From NCBI RefSeq assembly GCF_000172995.2, contig NC_014729.1:1980001-2012000 (forward strand): a stretch of DNA of 32,000 nt, written 5' to 3'. Below are positions 6,146 through 20,551 of this stretch, piece after piece. The position numbers and the translations under genes are program-made. The stretch comes from Halogeometricum borinquense DSM 11551 (GTDB lineage: Archaea; Halobacteriota; Halobacteria; Halobacteriales; Haloferacaceae). The notes beneath the pieces were generated by a model that saw only the letters and a program-made list of their open reading frames with translations, was not told the DNA's origin and made no database searches. Every line of letters starts with the position of its first letter. Positions within the stretch are counted from its first letter, which is position 1.

Positions 6146-6529
6146 TCAGTGTTTACGACGTTCGCGTATCGCCGCTGCGAACGCGACGGCCGCGCCGAAG
6201 AACGACGCGTTCCGGACGAACGCGTCGAACTCCTCGTCTCGTTCGTCGCCGCTCATATTCCAGAAGTCGTGCATCTGTGGCGTGACACCGAGCAGGAACG
6301 CGGCGATAGCGGCAGCCCCGAGGAGTGGCGCGAGGCCGAGTGCGAGGAGCACACCGCCGACGAAGAGCAGGAGGCTCGCGGCCGGGACGAGAACGTTCGG
6401 GAACGGTAGTCCGACACTCTCGGCGTAGCCGATCATATCGTCGATATTCGAGAGATTGTCGTAGCCGTCACGGGCGAATTTCGCACCGAACAGTACCCGT
6501 GCGAGAACGAACAGCAAGCGCTTGAGCAT
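6146..6529 (-). CDS. DoxX family membrane protein
   Basis: 127 aa, 3-4 hydrophobic helices. The FGAKFARDGYDNL...GLPFP... pattern is typical of DoxX. Confidence 0.75.
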   Translation of the reverse strand: MLKRLLFVLARVLFGAKFARDGYDNLSNIDDMIGYAESVGLPFPNVLVPAASLLLFVGGVLLALGLAPLLGAAAIAAFLLGVTPQMHDFWNMSGDERDEEFDAFVRNASFFGAAVAFAAAIRERRKH

Positions 6530-6774
6530 ACATTCGAACTACGGTTAGCGGGCGATAAACGCTGACGGCCGAAGCAGTCCTCGCTGGTTTCGACACGCGC
6601 GAGCGGCGACCGAACGCCGGTCGGTGGATTAGCTAGTACTCGTGACTGACTCGGTTGCTTTCATTTTCATTCCCGAATATGGTAGTTTGAAGCCGTAACA
6701 AGGCAGTAAATTGTGTTTCGTGGTCGCTCGACCGTTGGAATGAGGGGCTATGTGAGACCGTGAAATGCAAAAAG

Positions 6775-6783
6775 CCTATAGTT
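6775..6783 (+). promoter_or_regulatory. TATA-box-like element upstream of tatA
   Basis: CCTATAGTT is centred about 29 nt upstream of ATG 6809, consistent with a leaderless or short-leader haloarchaeal transcript. Sequence context only. Confidence 0.3.
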
Positions 6784-6808
6784 ACGAGTAGGTTAGGCTC
6801 AGTTAGCG

Positions 6809-7075
6809 ATGTTCCAGATTACCCCTCTATTCCCGGGGATCCCGGGTGGGCCGGAGCTCCTCATCGTGCTGCTCGTCCTCGTGCTGCTGTTCGGGGCGAA
6901 CAAGATTCCGAAGCTCGCTCGGTCTACGGGTCAGGCTATGGGCGAATTCCAGCGCGGACGAAACGAAATCGAGGAAGAGCTCAAGCAGATGGAGAACGAC
7001 GACGACGAAGACGAAGACGAGGAGACGACGACGACCACGTCCACGTCCACCTCGACCTCGTCGGACTCGAACTAA
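6809..7075 (+). CDS. tatA: Twin-arginine translocase subunit TatA/E
   Basis: 88 aa. PLFPGIPGGPELLIVLLVLVLLFGANKIPKLARSTGQAMGEFQRGR is the canonical TatA TM helix, FG hinge and amphipathic helix, followed by an acidic Asp/Glu then Thr/Ser tail. Confidence 0.9.
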   Translation: MFQITPLFPGIPGGPELLIVLLVLVLLFGANKIPKLARSTGQAMGEFQRGRNEIEEELKQMENDDDEDEDEETTTTTSTSTSTSSDSN

Positions 7076-7200
7076 CCGACTTCCTCACTCCGGCTTTCTC
7101 GGGAAACAGACACCCGTCGTAGGAGCGTCTGCAATCCGTTTGCACGCCGGTCGAAGATTTTCCCGTACGAGCGTTGCAAGCGTCTCTCGGTGGGTCCTTT

Positions 7201-7274
7201 GGGCGTGTGGCCTAGCGGACTAGGGCGAGGGGTTCCTAACCCCTCGATCGCGGGTTCGAATCCCGCCACGCCCG
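7201..7274 (+). tRNA. tRNA-Arg (anticodon CCU)
   Basis: Manual cloverleaf. Acceptor GGGCGTG/CACGCCC, D stem GCCT/GGGC, anticodon stem AGGGG/CCCCT with loop TTCCTAA, T arm GCGGG-TTCGAAT-CCCGC, discriminator G. No encoded CCA. Confidence 0.9.
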
Positions 7275-7305
7275 TTATCGGTACGAGCGAAGCGAGTCCG
7301 ATAAC
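7274..7305 (+). other. Hairpin abutting the tRNA-Arg 3' end, carrying the CGAGCGAAGCGAGT loop motif
   Basis: 8-bp stem GTTATCGG (7274-7281) / CCGATAAC (7298-7305) with a 16-nt loop TACGAGCGAAGCGAGT. The 13-mer CGAGCGAAGCGAG (7284-7296) recurs as a reverse complement at 20847-20859. Confidence 0.6.
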
Positions 7306-7409
7306 GAACCGTGCGGGATTCGAATCAGGGAGCAACTTGTTGCTGCGAGCCCCGTCGCCAAGCGAAGCACGGGGACAGTCGTGCGCTGGTTCGACCGTAC
7401 GCCACGTCT

Positions 7410-7746
7410 CGTAACATATGTAAAATAAAACATATTTCTGGCCCACCAACCACACAAAAGACAATCAAGAATAACATTCGGATGTCACATATTCGGAGTG
7501 AATTCCACGACGGCGCGGAAAAATGACTGCTTAATGCTGTATGTGTTAATTCAAAGACCATTATAAATGTATTTAGATTGACTATTTATTTTCTAGGCGA
7601 AGGACATGGTATAAATGTGTCTTAAACAGCGTATAAAGAGCTACTGGAGTTTATTTCTATAGTATAAAATAAAATCATAACTTGTTTTTCCTCTGCAAAC
7701 TCTTAGAATTCTCACTAAACAGGCCGTTAAATCCCCAGAAGCCTTT
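7410..7746. other. Strongly AT-rich non-coding spacer (by eye roughly one third G+C, against a GC-rich background)
   Basis: Read directly. Runs such as TGTAAAATAAAACATATTT, ATTATAAATGTATTTAGATTGACTATTTATTTTC and TATAGTATAAAATAAAATCATAAC. TATAAATGT occurs twice (about 7562 and 7611). No convincing ORF. Confidence 0.9.
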
Positions 7747-7749
7747 TTG

Positions 7750-10700
7750 ATGGGGGGACTCCACCGAGGAACAATGGCTACCGACGACGGCGCGTCCTCG
7801 CCCGTCCGACAGGATTCGGACGGCGACGACGAGGGCGCGTTGGAGGGGGAGGTCGACGGTGACCGGGTAGCCCTCGAAGGTAACGTCGCACCGGGGGGCG
7901 CGACGGCCGAAGGGGGAGACGCGGACACGCCGAACGGTGACGCTAGCGGCGGCCCAACGGTCGCAGTTGGTGCGTACACGTGGGCACATTTCCTCGACGA
8001 ATTCGGGGAAGACGGCGACGTCACGTCGCTCTACCGCGGTCACGATCCGCGGGAGACCCGCGAACGACCCGGCAGTTCCCGTTGGGACGACGCCGACGAG
8101 GACGAACCAACCACTCCAACGCGACCGACGCGCGACGATTGGCAAAACGTCAGTCTCGACCCGACGGACGAGCAGTATCTGGGCCACCACCCCGTCGAGA
8201 CGGAGGACGAAATCGAAACGGCCGCGAGCGAAGCAAAGCGCATCCAGTCGGCCTTCGAGGAGTTCTGCGATCCCGAGACGACGCCCGTCGTCAAAGATGT
8301 CTGGATGTGGGAGCACTACAAGCGCGAGGACTACTACGAGGACGACGGCAGTCGTCCCCGCGACGAAGACGGTGAGATTGACCGCTTCGACGCCGAAGCG
8401 GCGCTCGGATTCGACCCGTCGGTCATCGAGAACGCGCTCGCGCGCGGTTCCCACCGTGCCGACGAGCTAGACGACGTTATCGAGGAACGCACCGTCAACG
8501 TCAACGAGGAGTTAGACGAGGATGCGTTCTTCTCCGACAGTCACGGCGCGACGACCGCGGCGAATCGCTACGACCTCGAAAAGGCCGTTCCGATGGAGAA
8601 GAAGACGCACTTCCGCGAAGTCGAGCGCTACTGGGTCAACAAACCCCACTCGTTCGTCGTCATCTTCCACTCTGACAAGGAAAACGAGAAGAAATACTAC
8701 GTGGTCGAACCGTACCAGAACAGAATTGAACGGGATCTCGCGGAGTTCCTGACCGGAAAGCTGCGGACTGCGATCAAGTACAACGACGAGAGCACCATCG
8801 GAACGGGCGACGGAACGCGACGGCGTGTCATCGAACAGCAGTCGCTCGAACTTCTCGAACGGTACGACCTGTACGACCCCGGTCCCGACGGCTACAGCGA
8901 CGCACTGTCACTTGCACCCGACCCTACTGAACCGACCGAAGAACCCGAACCCGGTGCCGTCGCCGGACTGTTCACCCGCCTTGGACTCGGCGGCGAGGAT
9001 GCCGCGACAGACGGCGGGAAGGCTTCGCGCGACGGATCACTCGGCACGTTCGCACGTCGTCTAGGGCTGAGCGAGGAGTCGTTCGGCGGCCGACTCGGCA
9101 GTCTCTTCGCGGATCCGCCCCGTGATGACCCCGGACTCGACGGAATCGCCGCGCGTCCCGAACCCGCCGTTCTCGCGGACGACGATGCGACGCTGACGGA
9201 GTACCAAGTCGAGAAGTTACTCTACGTTCTCCGCCGAGACTTCATCGGCTACGAGCGAATCGACGGCATCAAACACGACATCAACGTCGAGGACATCTCC
9301 TGCGACGGCTACAACTCGCCGGTGTTCGTCTACCACTCCGATTACGAGCAGATCATCTCGAACGTCGTCCACGCGGAGACTGAACTGGACGACTTCGTCG
9401 TCAAACTCGCCCAACGCTCCGGAAAGGGAATCTCAAAGCGCCGCCCGCAGGTGGACGCGACGCTTCCCGACGGGTCGCGCGCGCAACTCACCCTCGGTCG
9501 AGAGGTGTCCGACCACGGAACGAACTACACCATCCGGCAGTTCAAAGACGTGCCGTTCACGCCCATCGACCTCGTGAACTGGAACACGTTCTCCTTAGAG
9601 GAGATGGCGTTCCTGTGGCTCTGCATCGAGAACCACAAGTCGCTCATCTTCGCGGGCGGGACGGCTTCGGGGAAAACCACGTCGCTGAACGCGGTGTCGC
9701 TTTTCATCCCGTCGAACTCGAAAATCGTCTCCATCGAGGACACCCGCGAGGTAGAACTCCCACAGCGGAACTGGATCGCCTCCGTCACTCGGCCGTCGTT
9801 CTCCGACGACGACAAGGGCGACGTGGACGAGTTCGACCTCCTTGAGGCGGCACTGCGGCAACGCCCCGACTACATCGTCATGGGCGAGATTCGCGGCGAG
9901 GAGGGCCGGACGCTGTTTCAGGTGATGTCCACCGGGCACACGACGTACACGACGTTCCACGCCGACAGCGTCGGTGAGGTGCTCAAGCGCTTTACGACGG
10001 ATCCGATCAACGTCTCGAAGACGATGTTCACGGCGCTCGATCTGGTGTCCATCCAGACCTCCACGCGCGTGCAGGGCAACAAGGTCCGCCGGAACAAATC
10101 ACTGACCGAGATAAACCACTACGACCCCGAGAACGACGAGATAAACGTCCAAGACATCTACCAGTGGCAGGCTGAGACCGACGAATTCCTACAGATGGGG
10201 TCGTCGAACACGCTGGAGGAGATCCGATTCGACCGCGGGTGGACCGAGGACCGTCTCCAACACGAACTGTTCGTGCGGCAGGTCGTCCTCGCATACCTCA
10301 TCGACCGCGGCCTCAACACGTACACGCAGGTGGCCGCGACGCTACAGGCGTTCATCAACGATTCCGACACCATCCTGACGCTGATGGCCGAGGACGACCT
10401 CGAACGGAGCCTCGAAGATCTCCGGGAGATGGAATCGGTTCACATCAACGTTGACCCAGAGAAGGAAGACATGGTTCCGCGCCCCGATCCGCCGGAGGAC
10501 GTTCTCAAACTCTGTCGAGACATTCTTGCCCGCGCCGAGGAGGAACTGTTCCCCGACTACCGCGGGAAGGACGCCGACGAGGTTGCGGACGCGCTCCGGC
10601 ATATCGCCGACGAACCCGACGTGAGCGCACGATACGAGGACCACGCAGAACTCGATGCCTTGGACGAAGCGACGCGTGCGGGACCAGAACTCGACGCAGG

Positions 10701-11142
10701 TGAGGATGGCCCATCGGAACTTGACGCGGGCGATGATGGCCCATCGGAACTCGGCGCAGGCGTAGACGACGGGCCAGGTGAATTGGAGGGCAACGACACG
10801 CCCGCGTTAGATGCTGGGACGAGCGATGACGGCACGGAAGAAGACGAGACCACGGGCGAAGTTACAGACGGCAGTGACCCCGAAGCCGACCTCAGAGGCA
10901 GTGACGACGAGGATTTCGGCATCGAAGAGCTCCTCGGAGAAGATGTCTCCGAGGAGTTAGAAGAGGACGGGTGGGGATTCGGCGAGTTCGAGAACGCCGA
11001 CCCCGAGGATACGGTAAATAACGACACAGTAAGCGAGGATACTGGCCGCGGCGACGCCGCGCGCGGCAAGGACGGTGAGAGCGACGCTGATCACGAAAGC
11101 GGCGACTACGAAGGCGACGAGCCATCCGAGGGAGGCGAGTAG
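7750..11142 (+). CDS. Type II/IV secretion system ATPase (archaeal PilB/FlaI/VirB11-like), giant acidic form
   Basis: ORF 7747-11142 (TTG 7747, ATG 7750, ATG 7774 all in frame). FlaI-type N-domain (REVERYWVNKPHSFVVIFH...YYVVEPY). Walker A FAGGTASGKTTSLNA (about 9655-9681), Asp/Walker B region RPDYIVMGEIRGEEGRTLFQ, His box TGHTTYTTFHA. Confidence 0.9.
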   Translation: MGGLHRGTMATDDGASSPVRQDSDGDDEGALEGEVDGDRVALEGNVAPGGATAEGGDADTPNGDASGGPTVAVGAYTWAHFLDEFGEDGDVTSLYRGHDPRETRERPGSSRWDDADEDEPTTPTRPTRDDWQNVSLDPTDEQYLGHHPVETEDEIETAASEAKRIQSAFEEFCDPETTPVVKDVWMWEHYKREDYYEDDGSRPRDEDGEIDRFDAEAALGFDPSVIENALARGSHRADELDDVIEERTVNVNEELDEDAFFSDSHGATTAANRYDLEKAVPMEKKTHFREVERYWVNKPHSFVVIFHSDKENEKKYYVVEPYQNRIERDLAEFLTGKLRTAIKYNDESTIGTGDGTRRRVIEQQSLELLERYDLYDPGPDGYSDALSLAPDPTEPTEEPEPGAVAGLFTRLGLGGEDAATDGGKASRDGSLGTFARRLGLSEESFGGRLGSLFADPPRDDPGLDGIAARPEPAVLADDDATLTEYQVEKLLYVLRRDFIGYERIDGIKHDINVEDISCDGYNSPVFVYHSDYEQIISNVVHAETELDDFVVKLAQRSGKGISKRRPQVDATLPDGSRAQLTLGREVSDHGTNYTIRQFKDVPFTPIDLVNWNTFSLEEMAFLWLCIENHKSLIFAGGTASGKTTSLNAVSLFIPSNSKIVSIEDTREVELPQRNWIASVTRPSFSDDDKGDVDEFDLLEAALRQRPDYIVMGEIRGEEGRTLFQVMSTGHTTYTTFHADSVGEVLKRFTTDPINVSKTMFTALDLVSIQTSTRVQGNKVRRNKSLTEINHYDPENDEINVQDIYQWQAETDEFLQMGSSNTLEEIRFDRGWTEDRLQHELFVRQVVLAYLIDRGLNTYTQVAATLQAFINDSDTILTLMAEDDLERSLEDLREMESVHINVDPEKEDMVPRPDPPEDVLKLCRDILARAEEELFPDYRGKDADEVADALRHIADEPDVSARYEDHAELDALDEATRAGPELDAGEDGPSELDAGDDGPSELGAGVDDGPGELEGNDTPALDAGTSDDGTEEDETTGEVTDGSDPEADLRGSDDEDFGIEELLGEDVSEELEEDGWGFGEFENADPEDTVNNDTVSEDTGRGDAARGKDGESDADHESGDYEGDEPSEGGE
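10705..10764 (+). repeat. In-frame 30-bp tandem duplication in the ATPase acidic tail (DGPSELDAGD / DGPSELGAGV)
   Basis: GATGGCCCATCGGAACTTGACGCGGGCGAT followed by GATGGCCCATCGGAACTCGGCGCAGGCGTA. More degenerate copies flank it (GPELDAGE, DGPGELEGN). Confidence 0.8.
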
Positions 11143-13191
11143 ATGAGCCTCGACTCGCCTACATCTGGGGGACTCGACCGCAGTTCCGACACACTCGGCG
11201 ACGCGTTCTATCCCCTGTTCCGCCTGCTGTTCGACGAGGACGGCGACTTCGTGAGCGACGTCGAACGGAAACTCGAACAGGCGCGGATGCCCGCGACGGT
11301 GGAGTTGTATCTCTCGCACGCCCTCGCAGTCGGTGTCCTCGCTGGTGGATTGCTCTGGCTTCTCGGCTCACTCATCGGTTACGCGATGTTCGCATTCGGC
11401 CTCGTTTCGGCGGAGACGCTCAGTCTCGGCATTCCGACGCCGGATGCACAGACGGCCGCGTTCTTGGAGTCGCTGACGATGCCGTTCGGTGTTCTCGTCT
11501 CCGGACTCGTCTTCGGCAGTATCGGGTTCGCCCTCGGATTCGGGACGCTAGTCGCCGTTCCGTTCTCGAAAGCGTCGAGTCGCAAGCGGGAGATAAACAT
11601 GCTTCTGCCCGACGCTATCTCGTTCATGTACGCCCTGTCGGTGGGCGGACTGAACCAACTTGAGATTCTGGAGGCGATGGGACGCGCCGAGGACACCTAC
11701 GGCGAAGTCGCCCGCGAGTTCCAAAGTATCGTTCAAGAGACGGAGTATTTCGGGACCGACTACCGCAACGCCATCCGCGATCAAGCGATGGTGACGCCGT
11801 CGGACGAACTTTCGCAGTTCCTGACGGACATGCTCTCTATCGTTAACTCCGGCGGCAATATGGAGCAGTTCTTAGACGACAAGAAGGAGAAACACCTGCG
11901 AACCGCAAAGCAGGAACAGGAGATGACGTTGGAGACGCTGGAACTGTTCGGCGAGATGTACATGACGCTCTCGCTGTTTCCGCTGCTTCTCATCATCATC
12001 CTCGTCATCATGAGCATGCTCGGGCAGGCCCAGCAGTCACTGCTCTACGCGACGGTGTACGGCCTGATCCCACTCACCGGTGTCGGCTTTCTCGTCCTCG
12101 TTTCGACGGTGAAACAGGACGAACCCGGTGACGGCTATCTCCAACCAGCGGAGTCGCCTGATCGACTCGAGCAGAGCCACAGAGAGGGGCTGGTTCACAT
12201 GGGGCTGATCGAGGATTTCACCGGCGAGTTCCGCCTCTTCGACCGTATCCACTCGCGCGAGGGGACGTACAAAACGAAGGAACTGCTCGAAAACCCGCAC
12301 CTGTTCTTCCGAGATAACCCGCTTTACACGCTCGTTCTCACCGTCCCTGCGGCAACCGTGTTTGTCTTGACCGCCGTTATCGGCGGGGCCGCACCGCTCT
12401 CGTGGGACGCAATGTTGAACCAACCCATCTGGGGGACGTTCGTCTGGTGGTACATCCCCGCCTACGTGATCGGCATCCCGCTTGCGTTCTTCCACAGTTG
12501 GAACAACCGCTCTCGGCAAGCGGTCGTCGGCAAACTCTCGGAGAACCTCAGGAAGCTATCCAGTGCGAACGATACCGGCCAGACGCTATTGGAGTCGGTC
12601 AAAACAGTCTCCGATACGTCCTCTGGCAAACTCGCAGACGAGTTCGAGGTGATGCACGCGAAGGTTAACTACGGCATGAGCCTCCGCTCGGCGCTCGTTG
12701 AATTCAACAACAAGTACCACATCCCGCGACTGGCCCGGACGGTGAAACTCATCTCGAAAGCGCAGGAGGCATCGAGTCAGATTACGGACGTGCTATCGAC
12801 GGCGGCGCAGGCATCCGAGAACCAAGACGACATCGAGCGCGAACGGAAGTCACGAACGCGGATGCAGGTCGCTATCATCCTGATGACGTATCTGACGCTG
12901 CTCGCCGTGATGGCCATCCTGAAGACGCAGTTCCTCGATGTGATGGCCGGTCTTACATCGCAGGCGAGTGCGAGCAGTTCGGGGTCGCAGGCCGTTCAAG
13001 GCGGACCGAGTTTCGGCGGGGCCGTGGATACGGCGATGCTCTCGCTTTTGTTCCTCCACGCGGTGACGCTGCAAGCCGCCCTCTCGGGGTTCATCAGCGG
13101 CTACATCCGCAGTGCCGACATCATCTCGGGCGTCAAGTTCGTCGTCATTCTCCAGACGATTGCACTCGCGGTGTGGGCGGTGGTTGGATGA
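11143..13191 (+). CDS. Type II secretion system F-family polytopic membrane protein (PilC/TadC/FlaJ-like platform)
   Basis: The start ATG directly abuts the ATPase stop (TAGATG). 682 aa with two blocks of cytoplasmic helical domain plus TM clusters (LLPDAISFMYALSVGG...; HIPRLARTVKLISKAQEAS...), as in archaeal FlaJ/TadC. Confidence 0.9.
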   Translation: MSLDSPTSGGLDRSSDTLGDAFYPLFRLLFDEDGDFVSDVERKLEQARMPATVELYLSHALAVGVLAGGLLWLLGSLIGYAMFAFGLVSAETLSLGIPTPDAQTAAFLESLTMPFGVLVSGLVFGSIGFALGFGTLVAVPFSKASSRKREINMLLPDAISFMYALSVGGLNQLEILEAMGRAEDTYGEVAREFQSIVQETEYFGTDYRNAIRDQAMVTPSDELSQFLTDMLSIVNSGGNMEQFLDDKKEKHLRTAKQEQEMTLETLELFGEMYMTLSLFPLLLIIILVIMSMLGQAQQSLLYATVYGLIPLTGVGFLVLVSTVKQDEPGDGYLQPAESPDRLEQSHREGLVHMGLIEDFTGEFRLFDRIHSREGTYKTKELLENPHLFFRDNPLYTLVLTVPAATVFVLTAVIGGAAPLSWDAMLNQPIWGTFVWWYIPAYVIGIPLAFFHSWNNRSRQAVVGKLSENLRKLSSANDTGQTLLESVKTVSDTSSGKLADEFEVMHAKVNYGMSLRSALVEFNNKYHIPRLARTVKLISKAQEASSQITDVLSTAAQASENQDDIERERKSRTRMQVAIILMTYLTLLAVMAILKTQFLDVMAGLTSQASASSSGSQAVQGGPSFGGAVDTAMLSLLFLHAVTLQAALSGFISGYIRSADIISGVKFVVILQTIALAVWAVVG

Positions 13192-13748
13192 CCAGCGGGC
13201 GTGGGCGCGAAACCGAACGCGAATGCAGACACGAGCGCAAGCAGGAACACGAGCGAGCACAGACGACGATGGATTTCACCGTCGGCATCAGTATCTTTCT
13301 GCTCGTCGTCGTGTTCGTCGTGGCGTTCGTTCCCGGTATTTTCGAACCGTTCGAGGGAGCCGACCAAACGCAGACGGCAGACCGCCTCGGAACCAGTCTC
13401 GCAAGCGACGCCCTCGGTGAACCGGGGACGCCCGCCGCGTTGAACGCGACGTGTACATGGTCGTTCTTCAGACAGATGCAGACCGGAACCGACACGACCG
13501 CAGACTGTGGGTTCGATGCGACGACAGATACCGTCGCGGCGACGCTCGGAGTGACCGATGTAGCGGTGAACGTCACCGTCTTCGACGACGGGGCGGTGGC
13601 CGAACTCGACTCGCCGGACGGCATCGCGGGCACGAAGCGCGAACTCCGCGCTGGCCCGCCCGTCCCGACGAGTCGGGGCGTGGCGACGGCGCGCCGCGCT
13701 GTCCTGTTAGACGACCGGACGCGACAACTGGTGGTGAGAGTATGGTGA
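13188..13748 (+). CDS. Pilin-like protein 1 (class III signal peptide)
   Basis: ATGA overlap with the platform gene stop. N-terminus ...HERAQTTMDFTVGISIFLLVVVFVVAFV is a charged n-region, an R-A/Q cleavage-type motif and a hydrophobic helix. ATG 13269 is an alternative start. Confidence 0.65.
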   Translation: MTSGRGRETERECRHERKQEHERAQTTMDFTVGISIFLLVVVFVVAFVPGIFEPFEGADQTQTADRLGTSLASDALGEPGTPAALNATCTWSFFRQMQTGTDTTADCGFDATTDTVAATLGVTDVAVNVTVFDDGAVAELDSPDGIAGTKRELRAGPPVPTSRGVATARRAVLLDDRTRQLVVRVW

Positions 13749-14404
13749 GTCCGGATCGACGCGGTGAGAGGAGAATGAAATCGGACCGACGCGCTGAGAG
13801 TCGGGCGAGGTCGGACAGACGGGGACAGGCCCACACGCTCGAAGCTATCGCCGCGAGTATCTTACTGCTTTCCAGCATCGCCTTCGCGTTGCAGGTGACC
13901 GCCGTCACGCCGTTGACCGGGAGTACGTCCAACCAGCGAATCGAGGATCATCAGTCCACTCTCGCGGAGGACGTTCTCGCCTCGCAGTCGGCCAACGAGA
14001 CGCTCAAGGCAGGATTGCTGTACTGGAACGAGTCGGAACGAAACTGGCACGGCGCGCAGTGGGACGGGTACCACGACGGCGCACCGGAGAATATTTCACT
14101 CGGACAAGCGCTCAACGATGCCCTTCTCGACCGCGGGGTCGCGTACAACCTGAACGTCTACTTCTGGCGCAACGACCAGCGGATTCGAGAGCAGGTGGTC
14201 TATCTCGGAGAACCGAGCGACCACGCCTCGGTCGCGACGTGGACAGTCACACTGTACGACGACGATAGACTCAGAGACGCAGACGGCAATCTGACGGCGA
14301 CGACGCTCTCGGACGCCGAAGATGCGTACTTCGCGCCGGACATCGAACCGGACGGCGCGGTGTACAACGTCGTGGTCGTGGAGGTGGTGACGTGGCGGAT
14401 GTAA
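13742..14404 (+). CDS. Pilin-like protein 2 (class III signal peptide)
   Basis: ATGGTGA overlap with the previous stop. ...SDRRGQAHTLEAIAASILLLSSIAFALQV has an RG/Q motif plus a hydrophobic helix. The remainder is soluble and acidic with N-x-S/T sequons. Confidence 0.65.
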   Translation: MVSPDRRGERRMKSDRRAESRARSDRRGQAHTLEAIAASILLLSSIAFALQVTAVTPLTGSTSNQRIEDHQSTLAEDVLASQSANETLKAGLLYWNESERNWHGAQWDGYHDGAPENISLGQALNDALLDRGVAYNLNVYFWRNDQRIREQVVYLGEPSDHASVATWTVTLYDDDRLRDADGNLTATTLSDAEDAYFAPDIEPDGAVYNVVVVEVVTWRM

Positions 14405-15381
14405 GGCGGGACGACCGGGGACAACTCCTGCTTGTCACCGCCTTGGCGATGGCGACGCTGTTCGTCGTCCTCGCGCTTCTCGTGAACACGACCATCTACA
14501 CCGGCAACGTCGCCAGCAGGTCCGACGTGAGCGAGTCGGCGCACGTCATCAACTATCGCTCCGAAGCCGTCGAAGCCGCCGGGAGCGCCGTTGGATACGC
14601 CAACCGACACGATAACGAGTCGTCACCCGACGTAGACGCCGCGTACATCGCTCTAAACGATTCACTCCGGCGAAGCGTCGCCAACTGGAGCGATACCACC
14701 GCCGCTCACGGCGCACTTTCGGGAACCGCAACTGAGATGCAGGTCATCACGGTGCAGAACGGGACACGAATCGCACAGACGGACTCCTCGCGGAACCTGT
14801 CGAGTCCGACCGGGGCGACGACGTGGTCACCGGTGACGGACGCGGCAGGCATCCGCGGCCCGGAGATGCGGCTTGCGACGGCCGACCTCGCGGCGGTGAG
14901 CGACGACGGCGACGACGTGGGACAACTGGTCGCAGACGGCTCGTTCCGCGTGAATATCACTGAGACGGACGGCGAGGTCCGGTCACTGTTCGTGTACGAA
15001 CGGAACGACGGCGACGTGGGCGTAACTGTCCGCTCTCCCGGCGGGACCGTACGAACGTGCCATGCGGCGGCCGATGGACTGACGACGCTGAATGCTCGGG
15101 CGGCGACGTTCGAGAACGAGTCGTGCCCGGCGCTCCGGGCGTTTGACAGAGCGGATGACGCGTTCGAGGTGTCGTTCGTCGCCGCGCAGAACGCCGTCGG
15201 CACGTACTCGTTCGCCGTAGATCAGCGAGCGGACGGCACGTCCGTCGCACCGTCGCTCTCGCTCGATTCCGGGATGCCGTTCTACACCGCGGCCATCTAC
15301 ACCGCGGACGTGAACGTCACGTATCGTAGTCCGGACACGTACTACAACGCCACGGTGGAGGTGCCGAATGCGAGCGTCTAA
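14392..15381 (+). CDS. Pilin-like protein 3 (class III signal peptide), 329 aa
   Basis: GTG start overlapping the previous stop by 13 nt. (M)ADVRRDDRGQLLLVTALAMATLFVVLALLV. Many N-x-S/T sequons. Confidence 0.7.
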   Translation: MADVRRDDRGQLLLVTALAMATLFVVLALLVNTTIYTGNVASRSDVSESAHVINYRSEAVEAAGSAVGYANRHDNESSPDVDAAYIALNDSLRRSVANWSDTTAAHGALSGTATEMQVITVQNGTRIAQTDSSRNLSSPTGATTWSPVTDAAGIRGPEMRLATADLAAVSDDGDDVGQLVADGSFRVNITETDGEVRSLFVYERNDGDVGVTVRSPGGTVRTCHAAADGLTTLNARAATFENESCPALRAFDRADDAFEVSFVAAQNAVGTYSFAVDQRADGTSVAPSLSLDSGMPFYTAAIYTADVNVTYRSPDTYYNATVEVPNASV

Positions 15382-15955
15382 GAGGAACCGGGGTGTTTCA
15401 ACGACGCTCGGATACGTCCTGACGCTGTCGATCACTGCTGTTCTCGTCTCGGGCCTGCTGATCGGGACGGGACAGTACGTTGACGACCAGCGACGACAGG
15501 TCGCAGACCGAGAGCTATCGGTTCTCTCGGAGCGAATCGCCGCCCGAACCGCCGACATCGACCGTATGGTCCGCGCCGGTGACGGAACGAACGAGGTTCG
15601 CGTCAGAATCGACTTACCGCGGACCGTCGCCGGGGAGTCGTATCGAATCGAGGTGAGCGAACCGACGGTGACGACGCCGCGGACGCACGATATCATGCTC
15701 ACCACGGGGCAGACGGACCAGGCCGTAACCGTCTCGCTCCGAACCGGTCTCGATATCGAAGCGGCGAGCCTCTCCGGTGGGAATCTCGTCGTCGTCTACA
15801 ATCCGGCGGACGGACGGCTCTCGTTCGAGTCCGGTGATACCGTTTCACCTGCAGTACTCGCACCGTCGCTCACACCGTCTCAGAGACCGTCGCTAACACG
15901 ATCACTGACACCATCGCTGCCGGGTCGTTCAAGCGCCCCCGGAGGTGGCGTCTAA
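15368..15955 (+). CDS. Pilin-like protein 4 (class III signal peptide), 195 aa
   Basis: The ATG overlaps the previous gene by 14 nt. MRASKRNRGVSTTLGYVLTLSITAVLVSGLL. Ser/Thr/Pro-rich repetitive C-terminal tail. Confidence 0.7.
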   Translation: MRASKRNRGVSTTLGYVLTLSITAVLVSGLLIGTGQYVDDQRRQVADRELSVLSERIAARTADIDRMVRAGDGTNEVRVRIDLPRTVAGESYRIEVSEPTVTTPRTHDIMLTTGQTDQAVTVSLRTGLDIEAASLSGGNLVVVYNPADGRLSFESGDTVSPAVLAPSLTPSQRPSLTRSLTPSLPGRSSAPGGGV

Positions 15956-17433
15956 TGCGCCTGTCCGAACCAGACCATCGAGCAGTCTCCTCTACCCTTG
16001 CGGTCGTCCTGCTTCTCGGGATGACGCTCCTCGGTACGGGTATTATCGTCGGCGTCGGGTCTTCCGCGTTGTCAACGACCCAGCAGTCGGTGGACGCCGA
16101 ACGCGCAGAGCAGTCGATGACGCAGTTCGACGCGGTCACGGCGATGGTCGGATTGGGACAGACCGACCGCGAATCGCTCACGCTTCAGAGTTCATCTGAC
16201 GGCGGATACACCGTCTCGCCGGACGACGGGTGGCTCCGAATCAAACACTGGAACTACTCGGAAGAGAAAGACGAAGTCGTCTACAACGCCTCATTAGGGT
16301 CGGTCACGTACCGAACCGAGACCTCGGCGGTAACGTACCAAGGCGGTGGCGTCTGGCAGCGGAGCGACGGGGGTACATCGATGGTGTCGCCACCGGAGTT
16401 CCACTACCGCGACGCGACACTCACGCTTCCCGTCGTCCGCGTCCGCAACACGGATTCGGCCTCGGGTCGCGTTCGGGCCATCGTCTCGCGCCGTGACGAG
16501 GTGGCACGCGTCTATCCGCACCCGAAAGAGCCCGGCCCGGGATGGAAGACGTACGACGATGGTGTCGCAACGTACCGCAATCCGGTTCGCAACGGGTCGG
16601 TGAACGTGACCGTCCACAGCGAGTTCTACCGCGGGTGGGCGGAGTACTTCCGCACGCGTACCACCGGAAACGTCACTGTAGACCACGACGCCCGAACGGC
16701 GACGTTGGAACTGGCGACGGTGGGGATGGTTGGGGCGTTCGAACTCCCAGCGAAGAACGAGGGGATCGAAATTCGCGGCATGGCTTCCGGTCATCCCATC
16801 CGAGAGTTCGAGGTGTCGCTTGCGAAGTCGAACGGCGGCAACAACAACATGGACTTCTCGTTCTACACGACGAAAGGTTCGAAGGCGTACGAGACGGTGG
16901 TCCACGTCCCGAAAGGAATCGGGAACTACTGTAAGAACGGCAAGGAGGCCGATATGACGATGGTCGTCTACTACCGCAACGGAACCGGTACGCAACACGT
17001 CTGGGCGAACGACAGCATCCCGGCGGGAACCGGTCCCGTCAGCATCGATTGTTCGACCGAAACCATCGCGGTGAACTACACGAGCGACATGCCGCTGACG
17101 TACGACGGGACCGGGACGACAGATGAAACGGCGTTAACGTGGGACGATCCGGTCGATTCGTCGCCCTCGTTCAACCACTCGGGCGAAGACGGCGAGAATA
17201 CGACGTTCGTGCCGGGCGGCCAGACGACCAGTCGGCACCTGACCAGACACTATCTCAGCTTCTTCGCGCCGGAATTCGACCTGAACGCCTGGCACGGCCC
17301 CGGTAACAGCGGAAAAGCCCGCCTCGACGTGGACGAATCGACTGGGGAACTCCGGTACGACACCACAACGTCATCGCAGTACATCACGTTCCTCCACGTG
17401 ACCGAAAACAACGTCACGGTCGAGTTGTCGTAG
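15955..17433 (+). CDS. Pilin-like protein 5 (class III signal peptide), large 492-aa surface protein
   Basis: TAATG junction with the previous gene. MRLSEPDHRAVSSTLAVVLLLGMTLLGTGIIV. At least 10 N-x-S/T sequons in a beta-rich soluble domain. Confidence 0.75.
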   Translation: MRLSEPDHRAVSSTLAVVLLLGMTLLGTGIIVGVGSSALSTTQQSVDAERAEQSMTQFDAVTAMVGLGQTDRESLTLQSSSDGGYTVSPDDGWLRIKHWNYSEEKDEVVYNASLGSVTYRTETSAVTYQGGGVWQRSDGGTSMVSPPEFHYRDATLTLPVVRVRNTDSASGRVRAIVSRRDEVARVYPHPKEPGPGWKTYDDGVATYRNPVRNGSVNVTVHSEFYRGWAEYFRTRTTGNVTVDHDARTATLELATVGMVGAFELPAKNEGIEIRGMASGHPIREFEVSLAKSNGGNNNMDFSFYTTKGSKAYETVVHVPKGIGNYCKNGKEADMTMVVYYRNGTGTQHVWANDSIPAGTGPVSIDCSTETIAVNYTSDMPLTYDGTGTTDETALTWDDPVDSSPSFNHSGEDGENTTFVPGGQTTSRHLTRHYLSFFAPEFDLNAWHGPGNSGKARLDVDESTGELRYDTTTSSQYITFLHVTENNVTVELS

Positions 17434-17464
17434 TCTGCCTTCCGTTTCAGAGATTTCCGGCCAG

Positions 17465-18235
17465 TCACTCGAACGTCGTTTCGACGGTGACGCGAACGAT
17501 GGTGACGCGCGAGACATCGTCGAGACTACAGGAGATGTCCGTGGAGTCGTCCGTGTACGGGTCGCAGGTGAACCCTTCTGATTCGAGGTAGTCTCCCCAC
17601 GCGGGAGCGTACGGCGAGGTGACGTTAAATCGGAGTGTTACCGGCGTCTCCGTGCGCGTCAGGAGTGTCGATCGCGACGTTTTGACGGTTCGGATGCGGG
17701 CGATTCGCTCGCCGCCCACCTGTGTCGTCCCGCGCGGAACCGACCGGACGAGTTGCACGACTGCTCGGTCTTTGTCGAAGATGAAGTCCGGTTCGTGAGT
17801 CATGCGCGGCGGTCCGTTACCGTCCGTCCGCATCACCGCGCCAGTGGCGTATCTGACCTCTCCGGCGTCCTGAAGCGACATCACGACGGGCGAAAGCGAG
17901 ATACTGCCCGTCGAGTTGTTCATGTCCGAACCGGGTGTGGCTGGCGTCGTGTCCAGACTGACGTTCACCATCGTCTCGCCGTACCCGAGGGTCGAGTCGG
18001 ACAGTTTGAGTTCGGTCCCGCGGCTGGGTGCGCCGCGCCGCGCCACGTCAGCGACGTTGTCGGCGAACACCTCGAACGCGCGTTCGGCGTTGTTCACCCG
18101 TTCGAAATCCCGCGTCTCCCGAAGCTCCCCCACTCCGAAAGCGTACACCGTTCCGACAGACGCGATGACGAGACCGAATACGAGGACGAACCCCAGTACC
18201 TCACTCACGCCGCGACTGTCTGCCTGCAGAGACAC
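17465..18235 (-). CDS. Pilin-like protein 6 (archaeal type IV pilin N-terminal domain), convergent with the operon
   Basis: ORF 17465-18472. The in-frame GTG at 18235 gives (M)SLQADSRGVSEVLGFVLVFGLVIASVGTVYAFG, a textbook class III signal peptide. Upstream ORF residues lack any such context. Confidence 0.75.
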   Translation of the reverse strand: MSLQADSRGVSEVLGFVLVFGLVIASVGTVYAFGVGELRETRDFERVNNAERAFEVFADNVADVARRGAPSRGTELKLSDSTLGYGETMVNVSLDTTPATPGSDMNNSTGSISLSPVVMSLQDAGEVRYATGAVMRTDGNGPPRMTHEPDFIFDKDRAVVQLVRSVPRGTTQVGGERIARIRTVKTSRSTLLTRTETPVTLRFNVTSPYAPAWGDYLESEGFTCDPYTDDSTDISCSLDDVSRVTIVRVTVETTFE

Positions 18236-18257
18236 GCCGAATCCTTGGCCGAGGTGG

Positions 18258-18265
18258 TAATTAAG
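18258..18265 (-). promoter_or_regulatory. TATA-box-like element for pilin-like gene 6
   Basis: TAATTAAG (read on the + strand; minus-strand sense CTTAATTA) is centred about 27 nt upstream of the GTG at 18235, the spacing expected for a leaderless haloarchaeal mRNA. Sequence context only. Confidence 0.35.
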
Positions 18266-18316
18266 TGTAGTGTCGAAGGGGACAACCTTGATACTCTGTC
18301 GATTCAACAACGGGTC

Positions 18317-18655
18317 ATGCCCACTCGGTCGTCCGTCTCCTCGAACGAGGCTCGAATCGTACTCGTGGCACTCTGTTTTGGGATCTTGTCGTACAGTGTC
18401 TTCGTTGAGACCGCGATTCTGCTCGGCGTCATGTTCTGCGGCGGAGTCTTCGGATTGTACCTCGCATACCAACTAGTCGGGGCGTTCGTTCGGCTCGTCG
18501 ATTCCGTCGAACGTATCGCTGACGCGTTGGAAGGCTCAGACGGAGCAGATAGGTTGCGGACCGCCGTTCGAGACAGTCGGTCCCGAACCGACGACTCCCG
18601 AGACGACGGGTCTCGACCCGACAAGTCGCGGAGTCGCGTCGACGACCGCTGGTGA
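18317..18655 (+). CDS. Small 2-TM membrane protein with Arg/Asp/Ser-rich tail (hypothetical)
   Basis: ATG 18317 lies within ORF 17753-18655; the upstream part of that ORF is antisense to pilin gene 6. IVLVALCFGILSYSVFV and AILLGVMFCGGVFGLYLAYQLVGAF are two hydrophobic helices. GC3-rich codons. A TTGATACT element lies about 27 nt upstream. Confidence 0.45.
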   Translation: MPTRSSVSSNEARIVLVALCFGILSYSVFVETAILLGVMFCGGVFGLYLAYQLVGAFVRLVDSVERIADALEGSDGADRLRTAVRDSRSRTDDSRDDGSRPDKSRSRVDDRW

Positions 18656-19087: not shown

Positions 19088-20551
19088 ATGGCACGTGAAA
19101 ACTCACCATCACGACGTGACGTGTTGAAAGCGGGTGCTGCTGCGGCCGGACTCGCGGCATGGGGTTCGTTTCCGGCGGCGGCTGCGGACGCAACAGAGAT
19201 TGACGGGGGAACAAGTATTACAGAACCCGGAAACTACGTCCTCACGGAGGATATCGACGTTTCCCGGGGACCAGCGGCCATCGACGTTTCGGCCAGTAAC
19301 GTCACTATCGACGGACAGGGTCATACCGTCAGCAACGATGCCGGAGAATGCATCTCCATCTTCGTCGGCGCGGATAACGTGACGGTGAAGAACACTCGCG
19401 TATCGGGCGACCGGAACGGGTTCCTCGTCGCCGGAAACGACGCGACGCTGTTCAACAATCTCGTCTCGGGCAACGGGCGCAGTGGCATCCTGCTCTCCGC
19501 CGGAAAGCGCACGAAAATCGAAGCCTGCGTCGTTCGGGAGAACAGCCTCATCGGAATCTCTGGGAGCGACACCGAGGACCGCGGGAGCGCAGACGAGACG
19601 ACCGTTTTCACGTCTGTCGTCGCCGACAACGGTCTGGAAGGAATCCTTCTCCGGCGGACCGACGACGCCGCCGTCGAGCGCTGTCTCGTCTCCGGAAACG
19701 GAACGGACGATGCGACACGCGGTCACGGAATCGGACTCATCGACCGAACGCGCGACCTCAGATTGGCGAACAATCAACTGCTGTCGAACGTCGCAGACGG
19801 CGTTTCGTTCCGGACGAGAGATGCAGAGCGGACGCTGTTCGGTCTCAACGCCGTCGGCAACGCCGTTGCGAACAACGGATCGGCCGGGTTCGGATTCCGC
19901 GACCTCGTCAACGCCGATGTCGAGCAAAACGTGTTCGCACGCAACGGCCGCGGGGTCGAAGGTCGGTTCGACCGGTCGCACATTCGGGGGAATCAGTTCG
20001 TCGATAACGACTTCTCGGGAGCGTGCGTCCACTCGCTCGTCCGCGAAAACGGGTTTGTCGGGGACGGTGTGGCACTCAACGCGTTCGCACACAGCGAATT
20101 CCTCGAAAACACGATTATCGGAAGTTCGCAACACGGGTTCTCTACGGCCTTCGTTGAAGAGAGTACGTTCTCCTCGAACACGATTGTCGGGAGTATGGGT
20201 GACGGCGTCTGGACCGACGAGTTCTTCGGGAATGACGTTCGGTGGAACAATCTCTCGGGCAACAGCGGCAACGGGTTCACCACCGAGCAAGGGGTTGGTT
20301 CGACGTTCAAATTCAACGCAGTGACCGGAAACGGCGGCGACGGCCTCTCGCTCTCGGGATTCGACAACGACGACCCGGGCACGTATCTTGTCCGGAAGAA
20401 CACTACCAGCGCAAACGGCGGTGCTGGCATCCTCCTGATCGATACGGTAGACAGTCAAGTCACCCGAAACCGCGTCTGTGCGAACGCGGGCGGGAGTATC
20501 GAAACGCAAGGATTGGCGGATAACGTCATCGAGAACAATCAGATCTGTTAG
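19088..20551 (+). CDS. Tat-signal right-handed parallel beta-helix repeat protein (NosD/PbH1-like)
   Basis: MARENSPSRRDVLKAGAAAAGLAAWGSFPAAAA is a twin-arginine signal. It is followed by more than 12 units of about 22-24 aa of the type N-x-(V/I)-x-G-N-x-x-x-G-(I/F)-x-L (for example VSGNGRSGILLS, VADNGLEGILLR, VTGNGGDGLSLS, TSANGGAGILLI). Confidence 0.85.
   Translation: MARENSPSRRDVLKAGAAAAGLAAWGSFPAAAADATEIDGGTSITEPGNYVLTEDIDVSRGPAAIDVSASNVTIDGQGHTVSNDAGECISIFVGADNVTVKNTRVSGDRNGFLVAGNDATLFNNLVSGNGRSGILLSAGKRTKIEACVVRENSLIGISGSDTEDRGSADETTVFTSVVADNGLEGILLRRTDDAAVERCLVSGNGTDDATRGHGIGLIDRTRDLRLANNQLLSNVADGVSFRTRDAERTLFGLNAVGNAVANNGSAGFGFRDLVNADVEQNVFARNGRGVEGRFDRSHIRGNQFVDNDFSGACVHSLVRENGFVGDGVALNAFAHSEFLENTIIGSSQHGFSTAFVEESTFSSNTIVGSMGDGVWTDEFFGNDVRWNNLSGNSGNGFTTEQGVGSTFKFNAVTGNGGDGLSLSGFDNDDPGTYLVRKNTTSANGGAGILLIDTVDSQVTRNRVCANAGGSIETQGLADNVIENNQIC

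Follow-up and report, generated by a model that had tools for sequence, protein, structure and literature searches.

A pilB4/pilC4-type locus of Halogeometricum borinquense and its conserved set of pilin-like genes

The 32-kb stretch of chromosomal DNA from Halogeometricum borinquense DSM 11551 considered here (contig NC_014729.1, positions 1,980,001 to 2,012,000; hereafter, the window) contains a group of eight genes, numbered g1 to g8 along the locus, which is, judged by gene order and sequence relationships, the positional ortholog of the pilB4 locus of Haloferax volcanii (HVO_1160 to HVO_1153). The first two genes encode an assembly ATPase and its membrane platform, and the remaining six encode putative prepilins. 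The locus is therefore already known both as a kind and as an instance: it corresponds to clade 2 in a 2016 census, to 'system 2' in a 2026 preprint and to the pilB4 type. A previous description of this DNA, made from the letters alone (the sequence-only reading), had presented it as an uncharacterised filament module. In the sense of an unrecognised module this has to be withdrawn, given its presence in the census and the ortholog in H. volcanii. As to the role of the locus, we consider the chances about even that the operon pilins are low-abundance accessory pilins, the bulk pilin of the filament being encoded elsewhere, a reading that draws mainly on the genetics of a locus of Natrinema sp. 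J7 that is probably of the same type.

The motor genes and the Haloferax volcanii pilB4 locus

The identity of the two motor components, an ATPase of the GspE/FlaI family (g1) and a TadC/PilC platform (g2), is well established by their domains, in line with the PilB/PilC-type operon that the sequence-only reading had recognized. The PilB4-type ATPase encoded by g1 (7750-11142, forward strand; 1130 residues) matches Pfam T2SSE with 109 bits and, weakly, PilB3_N and PilB3_C, and its sequence includes GGTASGKTT, the Walker A motif (residue 636), as well as a His box, TGHTTYTTFH (residue 728). The nearest solved relative of its core (residues 482-881) is the GspE protein of Archaeoglobus fulgidus (afGspE, PDB 2OAP, E = 3e-110). 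This afGspE/FlaI-like core, spanning residues ~480-880, is flanked by an N-terminal extension of ~480 residues and a C-terminal tail of ~250 residues, in which Asp and Glu amount to 36%. The platform, encoded by g2 (11143-13191, forward strand; 682 residues), is a polytopic PilC4/TadC-type protein with two T2SSF domains (two matched stretches in Pfam) and about 9-10 hydrophobic segments. When compared with models of other systems, g1 scored 391 bits against the NCBIfam FlaI equivalog, under the cut-off of 550, and 179 bits against the bindosome ATPase BasE, whose cut-off is 1000. The BasF model scored 33 bits (cut-off 1300).

Both proteins had been catalogued in the Makarova 2016 census (PMC4858521), g1 as gi 313126821 (1122 residues, arCOG01817, Clade_2) and g2 as gi 313126822 (682 residues, arCOG01808). 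In that work, g1 branches with H. volcanii gi 292655315, very probably PilB4, and with a Haloferax mediterranei protein. It was also reported there that H. volcanii PilB4 (HVO_1160) is extended at both its N- and C-termini by domains found in Halobacteria only, and that it is accompanied by its own set of pilins. The extensions of g1 agree with this description, the platform is encoded by a single TadC/PilC gene, and the arCOG01817 ATPase is accompanied by its own pilin set in fixed order, including the signature DUF7289/arCOG02911 family (mapped by position); these features place the locus in the PilB4 type within clade 2. A second ATPase, of the PilB3 type (639 residues), is encoded elsewhere in the H. 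borinquense genome (PMC4858521).

In the published tables for H. volcanii, pilB4 is HVO_1160 and pilC4 is HVO_1159, followed by HVO_1158 to HVO_1154. HVO_1153 lies at 1,051,586 on the chromosome. The order of the encoded proteins is AhpC, TatA, an ATPase of 1100 residues (PilB3_N, T2SSE, PilB3_C), a T2SSF platform of 680 residues, DUF7287, DUF7288, a 331-residue protein without a family, DUF7266 and a 256-residue DUF7289 protein, with a convergent gene for a DUF7289+DUF7308 protein of 503 residues (HVO_1153, UniProt D4GWB7), named 'secreted glycoprotein'. The two loci are alike in gene order, in Pfam families and in their chromosomal flanks (AhpC, TatA, rpS15, S3Ae, CDP-OH transferase, DUF7111, acyl-CoA dehydrogenase and SQS are common to both), and their ATPases branch together. 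They differ in the last pair of genes, which is inverted: the H. volcanii operon includes the short DUF7289 gene, with the long one converging on it, and H. borinquense has the reverse arrangement. Identity to the H. volcanii proteins reaches 70% for g1 and 77% for g2, it is 30-43% for g3-g8, and it ranges from 47 to 87% (most, 61-87%) for the flanking housekeeping genes; fast evolution such as that of g3-g8 is usual for surface proteins. HVO_1153 to HVO_1158 do not occur in the glycoproteomics supplement. A strain with a transposon insertion in HVO_1153, the ortholog of g7 (L083, 10001-11512), has been described as auxotrophic for proline (PMC4300041), a phenotype that a pilin-like secreted glycoprotein does not explain and that may be caused by a second-site mutation.

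The predicted prepilins encoded by g3 to g8

All eight open reading frames (ORFs) are intact, and re-reading them and their junctions reproduced the map drawn by the sequence-only reading, with its overlaps and the convergent eighth gene. Each internal gene begins at or within the end of the preceding one and is preceded by a Shine-Dalgarno site of its own: the junctions read TAGATG (g1/g2), ATGA (g2/g3), ATGGTGA (g3/g4) and TAATG (g6/g7), and the overlaps are of 13 nt for g4/g5 and 14 nt for g5/g6. Start codons are GTG in g5 and g8. The sequence GGAGGTG is present at five sites in the window, three of which sit 5-8 nt before the starts of g5 (5 nt upstream of its GTG), g6 and g7; this supports those starts and the translation of the internal cistrons from a single mRNA. 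Two starts are ambiguous, namely that of g1, at 7750 (1130 residues) or at 7774 (1122 residues, the GenBank call), and that of g4, at 13742 or at 13775 (the GenBank call, from M12, 209 residues), so that the g3/g4 overlap is one of two possible readings. In both cases, the alternative leaves the mature protein unchanged. The g4 protein is 100% identical to one recorded for H. borinquense DSM 11551.

The six proteins encoded downstream of the platform carry predicted class III signal peptides, and all but the last are encoded on the forward strand. The first, g3 (13188-13748), belongs to DUF7287 (Pfam, 161 bits), with the predicted site RA/QT (the slash marks the cleavage), and is the ortholog of HVO_1158; g4 (13742-14404; DUF7288, 216 bits; RG/QA) corresponds to HVO_1157, and g5 (14392-15381; 329 residues; RG/QL), with a weak match to DUF7261 (34 bits), to HVO_1156. 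They are followed by g6 (15368-15955; DUF7266, 107 bits; RG/VS), the ortholog of HVO_1155, and by the large g7 (15955-17433; 492 residues; RA/VS), which combines the Pfam domain DUF7289 with a C-terminal DUF7308 and is the ortholog of HVO_1153. Finally, g8 (17465-18235, reverse strand; 256 residues; DUF7289, 244 bits; RG/VS) converges on g7 and is the ortholog of HVO_1154.

The presence of R-[G/A] (at residues 8-27) followed by ~20 strongly hydrophobic residues, which the sequence-only reading had seen in the six proteins, was confirmed for all of them. A six-frame scan of the whole window found the class III pattern in g3, g4, g5, g7 and g8, with g6 narrowly under the cut-off. The scan returned 3-4 other ORF matches (a small ORF beside g8, an ORF within COX3 and another on the strand opposite g1), without a convincing prepilin among them, and with so few matches elsewhere the clustering of the pattern in g3-g8 is far beyond chance. 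The processing motifs are conserved across the loci described below as R[GA]QT (g3), R[GA]QA (g4), R[GA]Q[LI] (g5) and R[GA]VS (g6 and g8), and they agree with published sites of the PibD/EppA type, that is, RAVS in H. volcanii PilA4-6 and [KR][GA]Q in the Methanococcus Epd pilins. As to the five orthologs in the H. volcanii operon, a published table gives a positive FlaFind result for four and a -/+ score for the remaining one. With both the motif and the hydrophobic domain present and conserved, g3-g8 can be regarded as putative PibD substrates. N-x-S/T sequons number 11 in g5 and 11 in g7. No Peptidase_A24, archaellin or che domain was found among the flanking genes scanned, which agrees with the earlier remark that a prepilin peptidase, archaellins and che genes are absent from the window.

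The six proteins had also been described as mutually dissimilar, and this was sustained only in part. The search with profile models that had been recommended placed all of them in Pfam families, g5 weakly, and the profile-profile comparison of ortholog alignments indicated that the globular parts of every pair other than g7/g8 are unrelated. By contrast, g7 and g8, both DUF7289 proteins, are related with 98% probability (hhalign, E = 7.5e-14), a relationship that pairwise BLASTP did not detect at a significant level. Thus, g8 is a distant paralog of the N-terminal part of g7, and the set consists of five families plus one old duplication. Its best conserved member is g4, with 551 to 1177 homologous protein clusters; the protein cluster of g4 has no H. 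volcanii member, and that of g7 includes D4GWB7. The fastest evolving is g5, with a median identity of 30% across loci. The C-terminus of g6 (about 15815-15955) is a Pro/Ser/Thr-rich tail of ~45 residues (SLTPSQRPSLTRSLTPSLPG...) not covered by its orthologs, whose median mature length is ~151 residues.

AlphaFold2 models were built from alignments for g4 and g7. In the g4 model (predicted local distance difference test score, pLDDT, 88), a break at the invariant TPLTGSTS separates the N-terminal helix from a second one, after which comes an alpha/beta domain; in the g7 model (pLDDT 78), two beta-rich domains follow a long helix at the N-terminus. Both models suggest the overall helix-plus-globular-head shape of pilins. 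The Foldseek search with g7 gave weak hints of ConA-like beta-sandwiches only, none at E < 0.001, and phmmer searches of g6 and g7 against PDB sequences found nothing.

Conservation, possible role and surroundings of the module

A profile scan with g4, using one genome per species, yielded 206 relatives, of which the best 80 loci were examined together with two plasmid loci (82 in all). In 82/82 of them g3-g4-g5-g6 followed by a DUF7289 gene are collinear. Of the checks proposed by the sequence-only reading, the phyletic profile has given a conserved set, and the Haloferax comparison positional orthology with pilB4. At each of the five junctions, the median spacing between the stop codon of the upstream gene and the R[GA] codon that follows it lies between 6 and 36 nt. 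It is therefore shown that the arrangement is kept in about 80 haloarchaeal species. The ATPase and the platform adjoin the pilin set in most loci and are detached from it in Haloarcula-type genomes, as seen in L034, L036, L041-L052 and others. Several loci (L070, L075 and L076) have a second, more divergent partial pilin set nearby. Regarding the last pair of genes, 28 loci have the arrangement seen here, with the long gene in the operon and the short gene converging on it, and the reverse is found in 48 (Haloferax and Haloarcula types). A live inversion switch of g7/g8 was considered and discarded: no significant inverted repeat was found at the borders in the window, and the genes are too diverged for homologous recombination.

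This conservation bears on the notion that the module could be a silent or decaying paralogous pil locus without present function. The idea might be entertained because, in H. volcanii, visible pili are known from pilB3C3 alone, and because PilB4 protein was detected in one medium only, glycerol minimal medium. However, the eight ORFs are intact, order, junctions and processing motifs have been maintained over about 80 species, and pilB4C4 is transcribed in H. gibbonsii, where it is down-regulated on HFTV1 infection; we thus judge a silent locus to be very improbable.

The way in which the system may operate can be outlined as follows. A single mRNA would start in the AT-rich region upstream of g1 (7400-7749; 35% GC vs. 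62% for the window), located between tRNA-Arg and g1, which is likely the promoter and leader of the operon. Sec would insert the six preproteins into the membrane, PibD, encoded elsewhere, would cleave them after R-[G/A], and the PilB4/PilC4 motor would assemble the cleaved proteins via their N-terminal helices. The operon proteins would make up a complex that primes the pilus or sits at its tip, g7, the large one, being outermost, and most of the filament would consist of a PilA-type pilin whose gene lies elsewhere. Such a pilus would be of the adhesion type and would be produced under particular conditions. As to the AT-rich region itself, the tRNA-Arg(CCT) gene lies upstream of it at 7200-7275, several TATA-like runs are found in the 350-bp stretch, and the region upstream of the orthologous loci is AT-enriched too, to a less extreme degree.

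Different observations argue in favor of such an accessory role. The g6 gene lies in the middle of the operon, overlaps g5 and shares its neighbours' ribosome-binding site, a disposition that fits equal, rather than excess, production. In addition, the five unrelated globular parts, kept in fixed order, resemble bacterial minor-pilin sets. A further clue is that canonical PilA genes, recognized by their invariant helix, lie immediately beside the module where it is carried by plasmids, that is, in the second copies found on a Halobaculum halophilum plasmid (L001, PilA gene at 6415-6864) and on pHM500 of Haloferax mediterranei (L002, at 7084-7548 and 17852-18277); another such gene lies near the module in L039. 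The most relevant support came from the deletion phenotypes reported for Natrinema sp. J7 (PMC12426801), in which PilB2-C2 adjoins the five-gene cluster pilA6-10. These authors showed that PilB2-C2 is needed for PilA1-2 pili, whose pilins are encoded elsewhere: a virus dependent on these pili no longer infects when PilB2-C2 is deleted, and the deletion of pilA6-10 lowers pilus-dependent plating ~100-fold. They also reported that pilA6-10 transcripts are very low and that the pilins they encode cannot replace PilA1-4. Since one of the two clade 2 ATPases of Natrinema J7 falls in the same haloarchaeal PilB4 clade as g1 (PMC4858521), and PilB3-type loci are devoid of pilin genes, we infer that PilB2-C2 is very probably of the PilB4 type.

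Several points weigh against an accessory role. The membership of pilA6-10 in the families of g3-g8 relies on a published tree and a locus description, and co-transcription, PibD cleavage and filament formation are, for the H. borinquense locus, predictions. The models of g4 and g7 gave no Foldseek match in the PDB at E < 0.001, including pilins, minor pilins and pseudopilins, so that the support for a pilin fold comes from the architecture of the N-terminal helix. Furthermore, Makarova (PMC4858521) predicted that the major pilin is one of the system's own, arCOG03926 (probably g6), and that the system does not rely on PilA.

This prediction, illustrated in Figure 4B of the 2016 census, leads to a self-contained pilus formed without PilA, with g6 (DUF7266, arCOG03926 by position) as the major subunit, g7/g8 (DUF7289, arCOG02911) as minor ones, and g3-g5 as further structural subunits. 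Apart from its publication, it is favored by the size of g6, which is the smallest of the set if the tail is left aside, and by its RG/VS site, typical of the H. volcanii PilA pilins. The genomic context points in the same direction: with the exception of one chromosomal-type locus (L039) with a PilA gene at about 2786, several kb from the module, no PilA gene was found within 10 kb of the chromosomal copies. A search for a PilA-type major pilin gene in the window found none. However, a position in the middle of the operon, with a 14-nt overlap with g5 and the ribosome-binding site of the neighbours, is a poor setup for a subunit needed in thousand-fold excess, and g6 has no match to Pfam Pilin_N. 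We therefore view a self-contained pilus as possible, albeit rather unlikely.

The sequence-only reading had favored a stoichiometric minor-pilin or pseudopilus complex and had thought of secretion, uptake or cell-cell contact. The stoichiometric minor-pilin part of this proposal is plausible and receives indirect backing from Natrinema J7, whereas the part concerning secretion or uptake finds no conserved partner genes. A short pseudopilus that stays at the cell surface and serves secretion, the uptake of substrates or DNA, or cell-cell contact has in its favor a formal analogy with the five pseudopilins of the bacterial type II secretion system (T2SS) and Com systems, and the proposal, made in a 2026 preprint, that type IV filament machineries can carry substrate-binding proteins. 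Against it, neither the window nor the examined loci nor H. volcanii present a conserved substrate-binding, nuclease, DNA-binding or secreted-enzyme neighbour, and the score of g1 with the bindosome ATPase model given above falls far short of its cut-off. Mating in H. volcanii is unaffected by deletion of pibD, as published, which speaks against a role in mating, and the probable Natrinema counterpart supports long surface pili (PMC12426801). All this makes a pseudopilus improbable.

Taking the accessory role one step further, a more general model can be tentatively put forward, with somewhat less than even chances: that the five-family set (DUF7287, DUF7288, the g5 family, DUF7266 and DUF7289) is, in archaea, the equivalent of the complex of minor pilins that primes or tips bacterial pili, an assembly of fixed stoichiometry used by PilB4/PilC4 to start pili made of PilA-type pilins encoded in trans, with the DUF7308-bearing subunit acting as a distal adhesin. 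If true, this would explain why haloarchaea maintain more than one pil locus and how pilins whose genes lie in trans, viral ones among them, are assembled. For loci other than pilB3, the 2026 preprint considers the role "unclear". As a catalogued and named type found in most haloarchaeal genera, the locus brings no novelty of its own.

In the window, the locus is flanked by genes for TatA, tRNA-Arg, tRNA-Ala, the ribosomal proteins S15 and S3Ae, acyl-CoA dehydrogenase and squalene/phytoene synthase. Divergent from g8 there is an ORF of 113 residues (18314-18655, forward strand) with two hydrophobic helices and no Pfam match, whose tblastn matches are restricted to Halogeometricum and Halopelagius loci. 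Just past the locus (19088-20551, forward strand), a protein with a Tat signal and a NosD/right-handed beta-helix is encoded, which is also present in Halogeometricum pallidum (L004) and is missing from H. volcanii; whether as an adhesin-like neighbour or by coincidence, it may or may not be related to the locus.

Comparison with known systems

Several known systems could be set aside. An archaellum does not fit, because the FlaI score is below the cut-off and the window genes that were scanned gave no match to archaellin or Fla accessory domains. The same is true for the bindosome (Bas), with BasE and BasF below their cut-offs and no binding-protein domains in the Pfam scan, and for the bacterial T2SS/Com pseudopilus, as g3-g8 have no match to GspG-K or ComGC-GG in Pfam or NCBIfam, and g4 and g7 have none in Foldseek. 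The haloarchaeal subclade 4C, of the crenarchaeal-type clade 4, in which H. volcanii PilB1 and PilB2 were placed, and to which pil-2 of Hbt. salinarum is suspected to belong, was discarded because g1 is listed in clade 2.

Closer to the locus described here are the adhesion pili of H. volcanii made by PilB3-C3 and PilA1-6. Their ATPase and platform belong to the same clade 2 families, and their pilins have RAVS-type sites such as those of g6-g8. The pilB3 locus differs from g1-g8 in that it has no pilin genes, its pilins being provided in trans (PMC4858521). In contrast, PilB2-PilC2 and pilA6-10 of Natrinema sp. J7 (Cell Rep 2025) resemble it in having an ATPase/platform pair beside five pilin genes; among the loci probably of this type, it is the only one with genetics, the correspondence being an inferred one.

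Sets of several unrelated pilin-like proteins, encoded in fixed order beside motor genes, are also known in GspH-I-J-K and FimU-PilV-W-X of bacteria and in the Epd pilins of Methanococcus. These minor pilins are of low abundance and are required for efficient assembly, and the Epd pilins have Gln at position +1, as is the case for g3-g5. No similarity in sequence or detectable fold links them to g3-g8, so that the likeness is an organisational analogy and not family membership.

A further comparison is that with Archaeoglobus. In three genomes of this genus (PMC4858521), the clade 2 loci have the order arCOG06117, arCOG04652, arCOG07777 or arCOG06552, arCOG03926 and two copies of arCOG02911, that is, five pilin families in fixed order, the last one in two copies, to which g3-g8 can be mapped by position and size only. 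The Archaeoglobus ATPase is of standard length and lacks the haloarchaeal N- and C-terminal extensions present in g1. The five-family set, strictly conserved and on this mapping shared with Archaeoglobus, makes a good candidate for a minor-pilin complex of archaea.

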